Assembly: GCA_963718585.1 (NCBI GenBank)
Contig: OY970357.1
Span: forward strand, 900,001 to 932,000
Direction: 5' to 3'
DNA: 32,000 bases
Origin: Candidatus Saccharimonadota bacterium
Lineage (GTDB): Bacteria > Patescibacteriota > Patescibacteriia > 2-12-FULL-60-25
Position numbers and translations under genes: made by a program. The notes under the pieces are model-generated. The model was not told the origin of the DNA, did no database searches, and saw nothing but the letters and a program-made list of their open reading frames with translations. Shown one piece after another: positions 3,537 through 14,003 of the stretch (its first letter is position 1; every line of letters begins with the position of its first letter).

Positions 3537-7499
<3,963 letters not shown>

Positions 7500-7511: not shown

Positions 7512-10964
<3,453 letters not shown>

Positions 10965-11277
10965 GAACAGATGGGACGCCCACGAACGGGTTCCCCTCCC
11001 ACGCGGGCCTCGCGCTGCGGGACAGAGCAGGCGGAGATGCGAGGCGTCGGTGAGACCGGAGGACCCGGGCGTCTTCAATGGAGTAAAAAACGATGCGGAC
11101 GCAAACACCCACCCGTCCGCGAGAACAGGTGGGTGACGAAATTTACGCGAGACGCGTGATCATTCGGCGTGAGGGATGAATCAAGGCGGACGGTTTCCCG
11201 TCGCCCTCGTCCACGGCCGATCAAATGAAGAACCTGCAGAGTTTCCTTCACCTGACAAGCCGCATCGTTGCGGGCGG

Positions 11278-11306
11278 ATTATGCCACGCTCGGAAATGCC
11301 CGTCAA
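11278..11306 (-). promoter_or_regulatory. Sigma70-like promoter reading toward rpoB (TTGACG-N17-CATAAT on the minus strand)
   Basis: -35 is the complement of 11301-11306 and -10 is the complement of 11278-11283, with a 17-nt spacer. This implies a rpoB 5' UTR of roughly 300 nt. Confidence 0.55.
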
Positions 11307-11368
11307 CTGTGATAAGTAAGCCAAATTTCGCGTCGCTCTATAGAGCCAAATCCTGGGCCTTCCAGGCC

Positions 11369-11397
11369 TTGACAGAAAGATTGTAATGTGTTATCTT
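11369..11397 (+). promoter_or_regulatory. Sigma70-like promoter (TTGACA-N17-TATCTT), divergent from the rpoB promoter
   Basis: TTGACA at 11369-11374, a 17-nt spacer, and TATCTT at 11392-11397. Confidence 0.65.
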
Positions 11398-11403
11398 AAC
11401 AAG

Positions 11404-11569
11404 TCCCAGGATGGACAGGTCGTGCCCAACGGACAAAAGCTTACAATCTAGCCAATATTCGTCTCGAAGTGGAGAGCGAGACCCTGTCAGGCTAAAGGTA
11501 AAATAATGGCTCAAATTGGGCCATTTCGCTCATCCCTTGTTCGAGACGGAAATACCCGTCTCGTTTTTT
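11404..11569 (+). ncRNA. Leader RNA / sRNA ending at an intrinsic terminator, with alternative-pairing (attenuator-like) segments
   Basis: The terminator is CGAGACGG(11542-49) / CCGTCTCG(11556-63) followed by TTTTTT. Upstream, GTCTCGAA(11461-68) can pair either with CGAGAC(11477-82) or with TTCGAGAC(11540-47), which is the 5' arm of the terminator. Confidence 0.5.
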
Positions 11570-11579
11570 GTCTCAAGAG

Positions 11580-11761
11580 ACGCGGAGGAGAGAGCCTCTT
11601 GTTGGCGAAAGCCGTTTCCAAACGCGTTTTCACCACAGAGTGGCCACGGAAGCCAGTTACGCCGGTTCCAGACTTTTGTCCGGATACTGGCACCACTGGT
11701 CGGTACGTCGCCTTGGAGAGGGACACGCTTCGGCTCCCGTCCCTCTCCCCTTCGCATCCCT
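11580..11761 (+). ncRNA. Structured RNA module, copy A (unassigned family)
   Basis: Closing helix CGGAGG(11583-88) / CCTTCG(11749-54). Penultimate hairpin GGAGAGGGAC(11715-24) / GTCCCTCTCC(11739-48) enclosing GC-TTCG-GC. CCGGTTCCAGAC box at 11662-73. Confidence 0.6.
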
Positions 11762-11780
11762 TGAGATGAAGACCTGCTGA

Positions 11781-11938
11781 CACACATGGAGGAGGACCCC
11801 TGTACCGGCCCGAACACGGATCCCGGACAGGACGGTCGCGGAAATCATGCGAAGCCGGTTTCGACTGGCATCGCACGATCGGTACGCGACCATGGACGCG
11901 GGGAGCTTCGGCCCACCCCGCGTCCCCTCTAGGTGCGT
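11781..11938 (+). ncRNA. Structured RNA module, copy B
   Basis: Closing helix TGGAGG(11787-92) / CCTCTA(11926-31). Hairpin GACGCGGGG(11895-903) / CCCCGCGTC(11916-24) enclosing GC-TTCG-GC. GCCG / TGGC stem closing the loop GTTTCGAC (11854-69). Confidence 0.6.
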
Positions 11939-11959
11939 CCGCAGGACTTATTCCAACAG

Positions 11960-12110
11960 ACGTGGAGGAGAGTACGTTCCGAGATCCTCTTGGGGGTCAC
12001 GGACGTCGGAAGGCAAAACCAGCTGACCCGGTTCCGACTGGGTCTCGCTGGGAGTCGCTGACCATGGATCGCCCGATGCTTCGGCAAACGGAGGTCCCCT
12101 CTACATCCGT
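11960..12110 (+). ncRNA. Structured RNA module, copy C
   Basis: ACG+TGGAGG(11960-68) pairs with CCTCTA(12098-103)+CATC bulge+CGT(12108-10). GACCCG / TGGGTC stem closes the loop GTTCCGAC (12025-44). GC-TTCG-GC at 12078-85. Confidence 0.6.
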
Positions 12111-12133
12111 TGGAAGAAATTCCGACGACATTT

Positions 12134-12222
12134 CGCAGTGCCGGGTCAGGTCCCGGTGCCCTATCCACGGGCCAAAACTCCCTAAACCGGAGAAATAGGT
12201 GGTTCGAACCCATCCTCTGCGG
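12134..12222 (+). other. tRNA-like element (canonical T-arm, non-canonical anticodon loop); not a confident tRNA gene
   Basis: T-arm GGTGG-TTCGAAC-CCATC (12198-12214). Acceptor CGCAGTG(12134-40) / CTCTGCG(12215-21) pairs at 6 of 7 positions. CCGGG / CCCGG arm at 12141-56, 4-bp GCCC / GGGC arm with loop TATCCAC (no U33), and an extra CTCC / GGAG arm. No encoded CCA. Confidence 0.3.
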
Positions 12223-12266
12223 CGATCGCACCCTTCACCATCAACCCTAAGGACAAGAGGTCATCA

Positions 12267-12668
12267 ATGATCGAGATCGTCCGCCGTTCCATCGACGGCA
12301 CCGTCACGCAGGAGTTCATCAGCGTCACGACCAAGACCTTTTTGGCCATGGACGAACGCACGTTCTCTCGCGAGGACGAGCCGTTGCACCCGACCAAAGC
12401 GGTCTTGCGGTGCGACGAGACGCTCTACGGTTTCGATATCGAGGTCGTGATCGTCGCCTACCACCCACCTCCCGAGCCCGTCGATCCCGACGAACACGAG
12501 GAGGCGCGTGCACTGTTGCGACGGCATCGCGAGATGCGGGAACGGCTGGAAGCGCGCTTCATCAAACGGTCGAACCGCGGTCAACGCGCGAAGGCTGGCC
12601 TTCGCGTGGATACACGCAAATCGCATCGTCGCTTCGGCCGCGATACGACCCGTCACGAAGCGGCCTGA
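12267..12668 (+). CDS. Hypothetical protein (133 aa, basic C-terminus)
   Basis: ATG preceded by AAGGACAAGAGG. Codon usage is like the housekeeping genes (GC-ending codons). No motif recognised. Confidence 0.65.
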   Translation: MIEIVRRSIDGTVTQEFISVTTKTFLAMDERTFSREDEPLHPTKAVLRCDETLYGFDIEVVIVAYHPPPEPVDPDEHEEARALLRRHREMRERLEARFIKRSNRGQRAKAGLRVDTRKSHRRFGRDTTRHEAA

Positions 12669-12736
12669 GACGACACCCGCTCTCACCGCGACGGAAAACT
12701 GCCCATTGTTGGTACGGCAGACATCTCTCTGACATC

Positions 12737-12763
12737 GCCGGAGGAGTCCAACACTCCTCCGGC
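12737..12763 (+). terminator. Strong 10-bp hairpin after ORF 12267-12668 (no U-tract)
   Basis: GCCGGAGGAG / CTCCTCCGGC with a 7-nt loop. Confidence 0.45.
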
Positions 12764-12824
12764 ACCGATCCGAGTCCATCAAGCGATTGGTGGTCTCAGA
12801 ACGCTCAACCCACGGAGGTCACAC

Positions 12825-13031
12825 TTGTTCATCGTCAAATATTTCGTCCCGTCAGCAGCCATGGAAGAGTCCGGCGATCTCGACCTCATCCCCGATGGGG
12901 AAAGCGAGCCGTGCACCCGCCGCCAGGCGGAAGTGAAACTTGAAGTCAAAGACTTCATGCCCTTCGACGCGGAACTCGGCCTCTGGAAGAACCCGCTCAC
13001 CAACCAATTCGCCCTGATCGCTGCGGCGTAA
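12825..13031 (+). CDS. Hypothetical acidic protein (68 aa)
   Basis: TTG start 6 nt after GGAGG (12814-18). An alternative Met lies at 12861. The protein ends ...NQFALIAAA. Confidence 0.5.
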   Translation: MFIVKYFVPSAAMEESGDLDLIPDGESEPCTRRQAEVKLEVKDFMPFDAELGLWKNPLTNQFALIAAA

Positions 13032-13060
13032 AAAAAAACAAACCAAGAAGGAGAATACCA

Positions 13061-13174
13061 ATGCAGCTCAACATGACCGTGTTCGCCGCTCTTTCCCCCA
13101 ACGACAAGCTCCGCTACGTCCAGATGGTCCGCAGGCATCTCACCGAGAAGCAGGCGGACAAGAAGGCGGCGTAA
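13061..13174 (+). CDS. Hypothetical 37-aa protein
   Basis: AAGGAG SD 7 nt upstream of the ATG. Reads MQLNMTVFAALSPNDKLRYVQMVRRHLTEKQADKKAA. It is followed directly by a hairpin and is below the length cutoff of the ORF track. Confidence 0.4.
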   Translation: MQLNMTVFAALSPNDKLRYVQMVRRHLTEKQADKKAA

Positions 13175-13181
13175 GCCTCAA

Positions 13182-13207
13182 GGCGGAACGGGATTCCCCG
13201 TTCCGCC
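13182..13207 (+). terminator. Hairpin terminator candidate
   Basis: GGCGGAACGGG / CCCGTTCCGCC with an ATTC loop. A second imperfect hairpin lies at about 13217-13243. Confidence 0.45.
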
Positions 13208-13294
13208 GCCGATCCGAGGCCGCGACACCGTCGCGTCCTCAGATCGCTCTTCTTCAATCTCCATCCAAAGCCCGCAAGGGCGAGAAAGGCAAAA

Positions 13295-13372
13295 ATGGAT
13301 CAGTTCATCTTGTTCCTCGCCCTCGTTCTCGTCCGTCGCCGCGAAGCGGCCAAGCACGGAGGTAACCGATGA
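13295..13372 (+). CDS. Candidate 25-aa hydrophobic micro-ORF
   Basis: MDQFILFLALVLVRRREAAKHGGNR. Its stop overlaps the next ATG (ATGA), and the GGAGG that serves the next ORF lies inside its 3' end. Confidence 0.25.
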   Translation: MDQFILFLALVLVRRREAAKHGGNR

Positions 13373-13509
13373 TCTCTGTCTGGTGCGTCGTCATGGGCGT
13401 CGCGTTCATCCCGTTCGTAAAAATCTGTCTCTGGGCAGACGTTCGGGAACGCGCCCACAAACGTCATCAGCGCGATGCTCGGCTCATGAAGCTCGCCGGG
13501 CTCGGTTGA
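13369..13509 (+). CDS. Candidate 46-aa single-pass membrane peptide
   Basis: GGAGG 6 nt upstream. MISVWCVVMGVAFIPFVKICLWADVRERAHKRHQRDARLMKLAGLG is a TM helix followed by a basic tail. Confidence 0.35.
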   Translation: MISVWCVVMGVAFIPFVKICLWADVRERAHKRHQRDARLMKLAGLG

Positions 13510-13705
13510 ACAACCGCTGACGCAAATGCGCCAGCCCCTGCAACGTCGGAGACCATACATGGATGAAGCGTAGCCCCGTGGTCGGAGGGGCAATAACCAT
13601 CAACAACTCATCGCTGGAAGCCGACCACTTCCAGCCCCTTTCACAGCCCGCGATCACATCACGGCCTGTGACGGAGGCCAAACCAAAACCAACAAGGAGG
13701 TTCCT

Positions 13706-13897
13706 ATGGAAGGGAACATCAAACGCTTTGCCAGCTATACGCATGACCAGGCCATGATCTACCTGCGGATCAGCGCCCTCATCAACGCCGCGTTCGTCCA
13801 GGCGCGCCAGGAGGGACTCGTCCCGCAACAGAGCGACCGGGACACCATCATCGACATGGACCCATCCTCGCTGGACGAGGTCGATCACGTCGCGTAA
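13706..13897 (+). CDS. Hypothetical protein (63 aa)
   Basis: AAGGAGG SD 6 nt upstream of the ATG. Followed by a hairpin at 13909-13932. Confidence 0.55.
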   Translation: MEGNIKRFASYTHDQAMIYLRISALINAAFVQARQEGLVPQQSDRDTIIDMDPSSLDEVDHVA

Positions 13898-13908
13898 CCC
13901 TATGACTA

Positions 13909-13932
13909 GGCGGTCTGCCCTCGCAGACCGCC
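13909..13932 (+). terminator. Hairpin terminator candidate
   Basis: GGCGGTCTGC / GCAGACCGCC with a CCTC loop. Confidence 0.45.
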
Positions 13933-14003
13933 GCCCACTCTGCCTTCCGAAATGCTTCGGGATGCGAAGCGGGCGATCCCGCCCTCAAAACAAAAGGGTT
14001 TGA

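Follow-up and report, generated by a model that had tools for sequence, protein, structure and literature searches.

The window analysed here comprises 32,000 nt (about 59% G + C) of contig OY970357.1 from assembly GCA_963718585.1 (Candidatus Saccharimonadota bacterium, positions 900,001 to 932,000 of the forward strand), and the closest homologues of its rpoB gene are found in metagenome-assembled genomes (MAGs) of Candidatus Uhrbacteria and Patescibacteria. Housekeeping genes on the minus strand include a GalT-like gene, ruvC, yebC, rpoC (3537-7499) and rpoB (7512-10964) and, farther along, a RodZ-like HTH_25 gene, ftsK, recA, comEC, a UDP-glucose dehydrogenase gene and leuS. Between rpoB and the HTH_25 gene lies a plus-strand block of about 7 kb (11369-18250). 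It has near-consensus promoters at 11369-11397 and at 15546-15574, ends in one strong terminator-like hairpin at 18217-18248 and holds small open reading frames (ORFs) that received no Pfam, PHROG, PADLOC or NCBIfam assignment. This block carries four diverged copies, A to D, of one structured RNA module, which is, as far as can be told from sequence, a previously undescribed RNA of 130-190 nt (about 160 nt) in a clade of Uhrbacteria within the candidate phyla radiation (CPR).

Repeat finding returned direct repeats with a period of 172-190 nt, each unit being closed by inverted repeats of 24-35 nt with 71-83% complementarity. The motif CCWWGG-N-GCTTNNGC-N-TCCCCT, which covers the region of the helices P4 and P1 described below, has four matches in the window, in A, B, C and D, as compared to none in 100 shuffles. 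Likewise, a covariance model (CM) built from eight modules and run over the whole window with filters off finds exactly four copies, all on the plus strand, with scores of 124.6 (A), 138 (B), 126.1 (C) and 85.1 bits (D), while the next-best match, at 18.9 bits, is the antisense of copy C. A weak match at 18630-18777, inside the HTH_25 gene and on the opposite strand, was treated as chance. The three tandem segments of the original prediction, together with its distant copy D, are thus true copies of one RNA module, with an identity of about 52-56% (about 52% column-wise over all four copies). They had been placed correctly, but their real bounds are slightly wider, namely 11571-11766 for A when its P1 extension is included, 11781-11943 for B and 11957-12115 for C.

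The 871-nt region folds far better than shuffled sequences (z = -6.8), and each copy alone folds into a closing helix, P1, and three hairpins, P2 to P4, with the exception of copy D, which has no P2. In its minimum free energy (MFE) fold, module A (z = -4.9) is a four-way junction made up of P1 (11579-11588 with about 11749-11758, extended by 11571-11578 with 11759-11766), P2 (11596-11640), P3 (11642-11712), which carries an additional inserted hairpin, and P4 (11715-11748). The same four-way junction is obtained for module B (z = -4.9; P1 11783-11792 with 11926-11935, P2 11799-11831, P3 11834-11891, P4 11894-11925) and for module C (P2 11974-12006, P3 12008-12063, P4 12066-12097), which was also found as an inverted repeat and whose P1 is flanked by an outer CCAAC/GUUGG stalk. 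Module D (15616-15746, plus strand, z = -4.2) is the three-way, D-type form and constitutes the 5′ leader of a sub-operon at 15798-18214.

A pattern scan covering one genome per species gave eight loci, of which two were true: L121 from Ca. Uhrbacteria SZUA-46, where synteny reaches the 5′ untranslated region (UTR) of rpoB, and L125 from a Patescibacteria MAG. Among viral contigs a loose DNA pattern gave chance matches only and two specific patterns none, and of the 12 loci returned by the pattern scan of metagenome contigs none scored with the CM. Further loci were obtained from the contigs of close rpoB homologues by searching these with the eight-module CM, which found two to four copies in every syntenic locus, preceding rpoB in divergent orientation or, as in L142, lying at a distance of a few kb from it, and all on the strand of the orphan genes downstream. 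In total, 28 copies with E < 1e-3, and with E-values reaching 1e-34, are present in 11 Uhrbacteria/Patescibacteria loci down to about 80% rpoB identity; a weak copy was also seen at 78% (L153).

With respect to covariation over these 28 copies and the 28 pairs of the model, 95.3% of the pair cells are canonical, in contrast to 78.6 ± 0.9% after shuffling of partners and 40-54% when partners are slid by one to three columns; changes on both sides occur in 21 of the 28 pairs, double-change cells number 125 where 38.9 ± 5.3 are expected, and none of 500 shuffles reaches any of the observed measures, all these counts leaning towards the model because the alignment was fitted to it. P2, the base of P3 and inner P4 have variable stem lengths and are out of register in both the CM and the MAFFT alignments, pairing for P2 and the P3 base being 31-67% there and RNAalifold not recovering those helices. 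Therefore, the complementarity of own strands was compared with that of strands swapped between copies instead. By this measure own-strand duplexes are about twice as stable (-19.2 versus -10.4 kcal/mol for P2, -15.7 versus -8.6 kcal/mol for P4 and -9.0 versus -4.3 kcal/mol for the P3 base), and for most copies the own strand is the best or near-best of about 30 partners. In addition, MFE folds display the closing helix with three branches in 17 of 20 full modules, as opposed to about 16% of shuffles, with a mean z of -4.05. The predicted functional, structured RNA with compensatory changes is thus supported, and the covariation signal suffices even now for defining a new RNA family.

The closing helix P1, in which 5′-GACGUGGAGG pairs with CCUCUACAUC-3′ with one C·A mismatch, combines an invariant core with a variable periphery. 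The YGGAGG/CCTYYR pairing originally proposed is right for every copy in the window (CGGAGG/CCTTCG in A, TGGAGG/CCTCTA in B and C, TGGAGG/CCTCCA in D), and among the 28 homologues its U-A pair alternates with C-G (UA 15, CG 8, UG 5). The outer ACG/CGT extension, proposed to span a 4-nt bulge, is better drawn as a continuous helix, 5′-GACGU/3′-CUACA, with one C·A mismatch, whose pairs are kept in 25-28 of the 28 copies. Whereas the outer P1 pairs and P2 to P4 covary freely, the three inner pairs of P1 are the same in all 28 copies, and variation in the two that follow is almost confined to exchanges of G-C and G·U. The inner pairs of the continuous P4-P1 stack, GGAGG with CCUCY, are thus essentially invariant and the base pairs of P4 nearly so. 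This invariance amid covarying surroundings suggests that the stack of P1 and P4 has a sequence-specific function.

Following the purine-rich (AGAGAA-like) junction strand J1/2, P2 is a hairpin of variable sequence, in some copies with a tetraloop-capped tip. In P3, a base helix leads into an asymmetric internal loop (GAA in the 5′ strand, (A/G)GUA or AGUC in the 3′ strand), beyond which come a middle helix and the CCGG-UNCG-CUGG tip; the internal loop may resemble a motif of the loop-E/sarcin-ricin kind. The CCGGTTYCRAC box had been taken for an 8-nt loop, but it is the P3 tip itself, a CCGG/CUGG stem with an invariant G·U pair and a UNCG-type tetraloop cap, whose loop-closing pair covaries (UA 15, CG 7, AU 4). 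P4 starts two nucleotides after P3, has a GC-UUCG-GC cap and stacks directly on the 3′ strand of P1. It corresponds to the predicted penultimate hairpin with a different stem in each copy around a common tip, and compensatory changes were indeed counted in all four pairs of its base helix as well as in inner pairs.

The G·U pair in the CCGG/CUGG tip of P3 is present in 27 of 27 copies, individual pairs of P1 are G·U in as many as 12 of the 28 copies, and CM scores are 85-138 bits for the sense as compared to 14-19 bits for the antisense orientation. The invariant G·U pair and the large excess of sense over antisense scores fix the plus strand as the RNA strand. In line with the earlier judgement that the array has no credible coding frame, any one of the six frames is free of stops in no more than 8-12 of 21 copies, and the spacings of conserved anchors fall into all three residue classes modulo three. 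Gene callers placed ORFs of 40-147 aa over modules in L141 (8944-9387 and 8788-8919) and L150 (8799-8984 and 7462-7584), and these ORFs are probably spurious.

The main promoter (11369-11397; TTGACA, a 17-nt spacer with TG, and TATCTT; 10 of 12 in the promoter scan) diverges from the rpoB promoter at 11306-11278 on the minus strand and has a TTGACA-N17-TAnnnT equivalent in every homologous locus. The first 170 nt or so past it are conserved in seven genomes, and an alignment of the seven leaders (11404-11541 in the window, plus strand) shows the boxes UCUCGA (11462-11467) and GGAGAG (11471-11476) to be invariant. These boxes are followed by an intrinsic-terminator-like element at 11542-11570 (plus strand), in which the hairpin itself (11542-11563) is succeeded by a U run, CGAGACGG-AAAUAC-CCGUCUCG with eight pairs, six of them G-C, which was found in the terminator scan and is kept in L121, L141, L150, L146 and L125. 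The 5′ half of the terminator stem could base-pair with UCUCGA, an inverted repeat joins 11455-11468 with 11540-11553, and in L146 and L125 an A-to-G change turns one position of this pairing into U·G. The UCUCGA segment may therefore have antiterminator potential. Lying between promoter and module A, the terminator-like hairpin sets the first 170 nt apart as a separate attenuator-like leader, a candidate attenuator upstream of the modules.

At its other end the first array is followed, as had been predicted, by a tRNA-like element (12134-12225, plus strand), which ends 42 nt upstream of the first ORF (12267) and was recognised by folding, scanning and its homologues. It comprises an acceptor-like stem, CGCAGUG/CUCUGCG, three internal hairpins and a T-arm, GGUGG-UUCGAAC-CCAUC. 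Homologous elements were located in L141 (8381-8487), L144 (8151-8237), L145 (7916-8004), L146 (7805-7890) and L125 (1414-1499); the element is absent or degenerate in L143, L151 and L150. In six of six elements examined the acceptor-like stems of 6-7 bp each have a different sequence and covary, the T-stems covary at three pairs, and most elements have UUCGAAC, UUCGACU or UUCAACU as T-arm loop, L141 and L150 having degenerate T-loops. Three elements encode CCA. Two architectures can be distinguished, one being a cloverleaf-like five-way junction, whereas the other, which recalls the tRNA-like domain of transfer-messenger RNA (tmRNA), combines an acceptor stem with a T-arm and a long helix. 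The L144 element matches only this domain of the Rfam tmRNA model, with 22.4 bits at a threshold of 47, and the mascRNA model gives it 21.2 bits, below threshold. The identity of the element as a tRNA or tmRNA was rejected, as ARAGORN calls neither, a C-G pair occupies position 3:70 and none of the internal loops is of the anticodon kind. A tmRNA interpretation of the whole locus was also discarded, the acceptor stem being local and neither a tag nor G3·U70 being present.

Across genomes the arrangement of the modules is variable within a constant frame. The A-type module, with orthologues of module A in L121, L141, L144, L145 and L150, is always the first copy behind the main promoter. The D-type module (homologues in L121, L141, L144, L145, L146, L150 and L151) is situated 20-56 nt downstream of a TTGACA-N17-TAnnnT promoter in eight of eight genomes and upstream of conserved orphan genes of about 90 aa, 350-500 aa and 190-250 aa; in the window, the promoter scan places this second promoter (15546-15574, plus strand, TTGACA-N17-TAGTAT) with its end 41 nt upstream of module D. 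Small ORFs separate the modules in L141, L145 and L150, directly tandem modules without intervening ORFs are found in the window, L146, L143 and L144, and the order of module-plus-ORF units differs between genomes, so that RNA-plus-ORF units appear, from these comparisons, to have been shuffled. No terminator follows any module, and the array runs straight on into ORFs. In the scanned region, the 14-pair hairpin at 18217-18248 (plus strand), at the end of the gene block, is the strongest terminator-like site beyond the modules. The original prediction had envisaged a single ornate RNA of about 820 nt of the GOLLD/ROOL/OLE class. However, the variable number (two to four per locus) and order of the modules, the ORFs between them, the separate promoter of D and the lack of terminators speak for repeated mRNA leader or intercistronic units and not for domains of one giant RNA. 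Nor is the region an island, as it had been called, but a syntenic orphan-gene region between rpoB and the HTH_25/ftsK genes whose gene content differs among genomes. In L142 and in L144-L146, the neighbourhood with rpoB/rpoC is not maintained.

Several further observations concern the module regions. In L144 (7919-8077), the tRNA-like element is directly succeeded by the 67-aa acidic ORF that lies behind module D in the window (16070-16273), and this ORF also occurs in L145 (7269-7448). An extra conserved structured stretch (...GUCCGGCCC-AAAUGGACC...GGUCCGCGCCAUGCCGGAC...) that is not in the window lies between the D-type module and the first ORF in L121 (1816-1995), L144 (about 5990-6106), L145 (about 5040-5155) and L150 (about 6345-6523). 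In L142 (4230-5900, minus strand) a gene-free transcript region of 1.6 kb holds two modules 1.1 kb apart and, between them, three copies of another repeat (AAUACGCGCCCAUGAUGGAAGGGCCGCCAAAAAG...) with a period of about 260-295 nt. The contigs of L121, L125, L147, L148 and L149 end 340-720 nt upstream of rpoB or within the RNA locus; repeated modules or strain variation appear to break assemblies here.

As for the remainder of the block, searches of the operon proteins against Pfam, PHROGs, PADLOC, NCBIfam and PDB profiles gave nothing significant. Homologue searches with the 353-aa orphan recovered the protein itself and a single relative, none turned up in the viral locus search, and AlphaFold2 on a two-sequence alignment gave an unusable model with a pLDDT of 33.7. 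Two other products are candidate nucleic-acid binders, namely a very basic, lysine-rich protein of 58 aa (14312-14488) conserved in L141 and L151, and a protein of 198 aa (14876-15472) with several CxxC pairs, conserved in L141 and with weak similarity to the C-terminal cysteine cluster of Cas4 (E about 1e-4). At 13570-13654 a second conserved non-coding stretch, 77% identical to L121 872-952, holds the hairpin CUGGAAG-CCGACCA-CUUCCAG just 5′ of a small ORF (13706); its L121 counterpart directly follows the modules. Boxes like AGCCAAAAT (RGCCAWWWT) cluster at the main promoter (11319-11511), where three of the four matches of the window are located, and similar repeats occur in the AT-rich stretch before the promoter in L121, L125, L144, L145, L146, L150 and L151. 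They may be binding sites for a regulator common to the main promoter and the divergent rpoB promoter. Finally, the rpoB 5′ UTR past the minus-strand promoter (11150-11290 in the window, 1-160 in L121) is conserved at the nucleotide level, e.g. GACAAGCCGCATCGTTGCGGGCGGATTATG, which suggests a separate rpoB leader element.

Concerning known families, none of the 4227 covariance models of Rfam 15, which include GOLLD, ROOL, OLE, raiA, the riboswitch classes, tRNA and tmRNA, reached its gathering threshold in the window or in six homologous loci. When the cut-off was relaxed to E < 10, the modules and copy D gave nothing beyond noise of 10-18 bits, and L121 and L125 had no match at E < 1, so that the original failure to assign the module to a known family stands. 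In the full-text literature searched, no counterpart was found to a design in which repeated four-way junctions are accompanied by an attenuator and a tRNA-like element, and publications on non-coding RNAs (ncRNAs) of Uhrbacteria and Patescibacteria contained nothing relevant, no regulatory RNA of this kind being found described. The module is therefore best considered a new RNA family of a known general kind, that of structured leaders or non-coding RNAs.

While the module has been observed directly in the sequence, together with its fold, conservation, strand and position in the genome, its role is the part that calls for interpretation. The copies lie behind promoters or between cistrons, on the same strand as the genes and without terminators of their own, which argues for a role in cis in expression, stability or processing. 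The module is thus tentatively regarded, with a probability of roughly 0.42, as a cis-acting leader or intercistronic control or processing RNA of a clade-specific orphan-gene operon. In such a scheme the modules would be transcribed from the plus strand within a long polycistronic transcript, with A-type and D-type copies acting directly after promoters and B-type copies between cistrons. The invariant junction core would form the functional surface, which a trans-acting factor, either a protein or a small ligand, could recognise, and the two P1 strands, GGAGG resembling a Shine-Dalgarno (SD) and CCUCY an anti-SD sequence, might toggle access to a downstream ribosome-binding site or set the stability of the RNA. 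In the window, with three units back to back, the terminator/antiterminator leader upstream would gate their transcription, and the tRNA-like element would allow RNase P to cut the mRNA free of its structured leader. In this scheme the trans factor, the toggle between SD and anti-SD, the cleavage by RNase P and transcription itself are inferred.

A number of points weigh against this interpretation. No expression platform could be recognised, since neither a terminator nor a clear SD-sequestering helix follows any module, and in the fold of the module D leader there is only weak pairing near the SD sequence. Modules A and B of the window have no ORF behind them, and the controlled genes are of no known function, so that neither ligand nor regulator can be guessed. 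Furthermore, an attenuator upstream of the modules would be unusual for riboswitch-type elements, some of the covariation counts include inherited changes because the copies are related and belong to one clade, and the tRNA-like element and the long P1 stalks fit the excision of stable RNAs equally well.

In the strongest competing explanation, a possible but less favoured one, the array is a precursor cut by an RNase III-type enzyme at the P1 stalks and by RNase P at the tRNA-like element. The products would be four-way-junction RNAs of about 160 nt or a multi-module RNA, acting in trans or in a ribonucleoprotein or scaffold. Every module is closed by a long stalk, formed by the inverted repeats described above; direct tandems without ORFs exist in four loci (the window, L146, L143 and L144), promoters are strong and of consensus type, folds are very stable, and L142 has the gene-free region of 1.6 kb with two modules and three further repeats of about 270 nt. 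Moreover, at least six loci have the tRNA-like element behind the array in a layout like that of MALAT1 and mascRNA: as in MALAT1/MEN-beta with mascRNA, and as in the tmRNA domain, an acceptor-like stem and a T-arm come directly after a long structured RNA. Here, however, the scores with both models are below threshold, there is no G3·U70, tag ORF or pseudoknot, and the element is found in bacteria, with an ORF downstream of it. GOLLD and ROOL, too, often have tRNA genes nearby. The large ornate bacterial ncRNAs GOLLD, ROOL, OLE and raiA (PMC12286853, PMC12968392) are, like the 0.8-1.6 kb of non-coding sequence at these loci, long, highly structured, strongly covarying and without known function, but they are single large units of one fixed architecture, whereas here units of about 160 nt are repeated in variable number and order and can be separated by ORFs. 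What weighs against processed ncRNAs is that the modules read into ORFs with neither a terminator nor another 3′-end signal, that single D-type copies are fixed between promoter and conserved operon in eight of eight genomes, that the loops are UNCG tetraloops and not kissing or recognition loops, and that the tRNA-like element is missing or degenerate in three loci.

Tandem riboswitch aptamers, a special case of the cis-acting interpretation in which the junction of each module would bind a ligand and the copies would sharpen or widen the response, are considerably less probable again. Tandem and triple-tandem riboswitches are known, such as the tandem glycine aptamers and the triple-tandem c-di-GMP riboswitch Bc3-5 (PMC9481103, PMC4759541), and in both cases homologous self-folding domains, each with a P1, a conserved core and covarying stems, are arranged in series in a 5′ leader behind one promoter. 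An invariant junction-centred core surrounded by freely covarying stems and the recurrence of the module ahead of several transcription units of one neighbourhood are in favour of this view. However, the module matches no Rfam riboswitch and has no evident expression platform; copies also occur between cistrons and behind a second promoter, and with 160 nt and long decorated arms it is large for an aptamer. The orphan genes downstream have no metabolic or transport annotation. The conserved nucleotides form a Watson-Crick helix, GGAGG/CCUCY, and are not unpaired junction residues, so that a ligand pocket cannot be inferred from them. The broader notion of a new CPR-specific sensor or assembly RNA, be it a riboswitch-like aptamer for a ligand or protein that would control lineage-specific orphan genes with up to four copies per operon, or a multi-copy four-way-junction RNA freed from a precursor by RNase P at the tRNA-like element, is doubtful, though not to the degree of the aptamers alone.

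The remaining explanations are weaker. Processive antitermination of the kind mediated by HK022 put or EAR, where the nascent module would bind RNA polymerase and permit read-through of the hairpins of the 7-kb operon, is improbable. In line with it, structured RNA in more than one copy is found just past the promoters of a long accessory operon with several terminator-like hairpins, along which it recurs. Yet there is no similarity in sequence or structure to put or EAR, nor to any Rfam family, which would cover any curated model of these elements, and the module is much larger. In addition, tandem triplets and internal copies without promoters would not be expected, the clearest terminator is upstream and not downstream of module A, and the adjacency to rpoB/rpoC is lost in L142 and L144-L146.

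An even smaller chance is given to a repeat acting at the DNA level, i.e. a miniature inverted-repeat transposable element (MITE) or an integron attC-type site marking orphan-gene cassettes, the fold then being one of single-stranded DNA or incidental. As in these elements, imperfect inverted repeats flank every copy and are interleaved with small orphan ORFs, structure is kept while sequence diverges, the number and order of module-plus-ORF units differ among close relatives, as with the 67-aa ORF relocated in L144, and several assemblies break at the locus. On the other hand, G·U pairs, including an invariant one, are abundant in the helices, and the other strand would have A·C mismatches in their place; P3 and P4 are capped by RNA-specific C(UUCG)G tetraloops, and pairing is maintained at about 55% identity, unlike in recent mobile repeats. 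Within the sequences covered, the 32-kb window and 11 loci of up to about 23 kb, copies are confined to this locus, and they are always co-oriented with genes and promoters on one strand. An attC site was rejected since the structure is a branched four-way junction and not a single imperfect hairpin, no RYYYAAC/GTTRRRY core sites were seen by eye in the module ends (GACGUGGAGG ... CCUCUACAUC), and neither an integrase nor a transposase was found in the 32-kb window. MITEs and repetitive extragenic palindromic (REP) elements were rejected since the copies are confined to the locus in the sequences searched, the pattern scan of the whole collection giving two true loci of the same type. Protein-coding sequence or chance similarity, finally, has a negligible probability, because the ORFs of 70-121 aa that overlap the region, and those annotated over modules elsewhere, face the findings that no frame is open across the copies, that indels are not multiples of three, that the CCGGTTCC box is in different frames in A and C, and that the four motif matches against none in shuffles and E-values down to 1e-34 are not produced by chance.

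Genomes of the CPR/Patescibacteria are tiny, and at this locus 0.8-1.6 kb are spent on a strongly conserved RNA system consisting of an attenuator-like leader, two to four modules and a tRNA-like element. This system precedes genes without recognisable homologues and offers a direct experimental handle on clade-specific orphan genes, through the binding partner and the targets of the module. If the tRNA-like element were indeed a site for RNase P, this would represent a bacterial case of tRNA-like 3′-end or leader processing of a long structured RNA, and in the version with a processed RNA it would amount to a bacterial analogue of the MALAT1-mascRNA arrangement.

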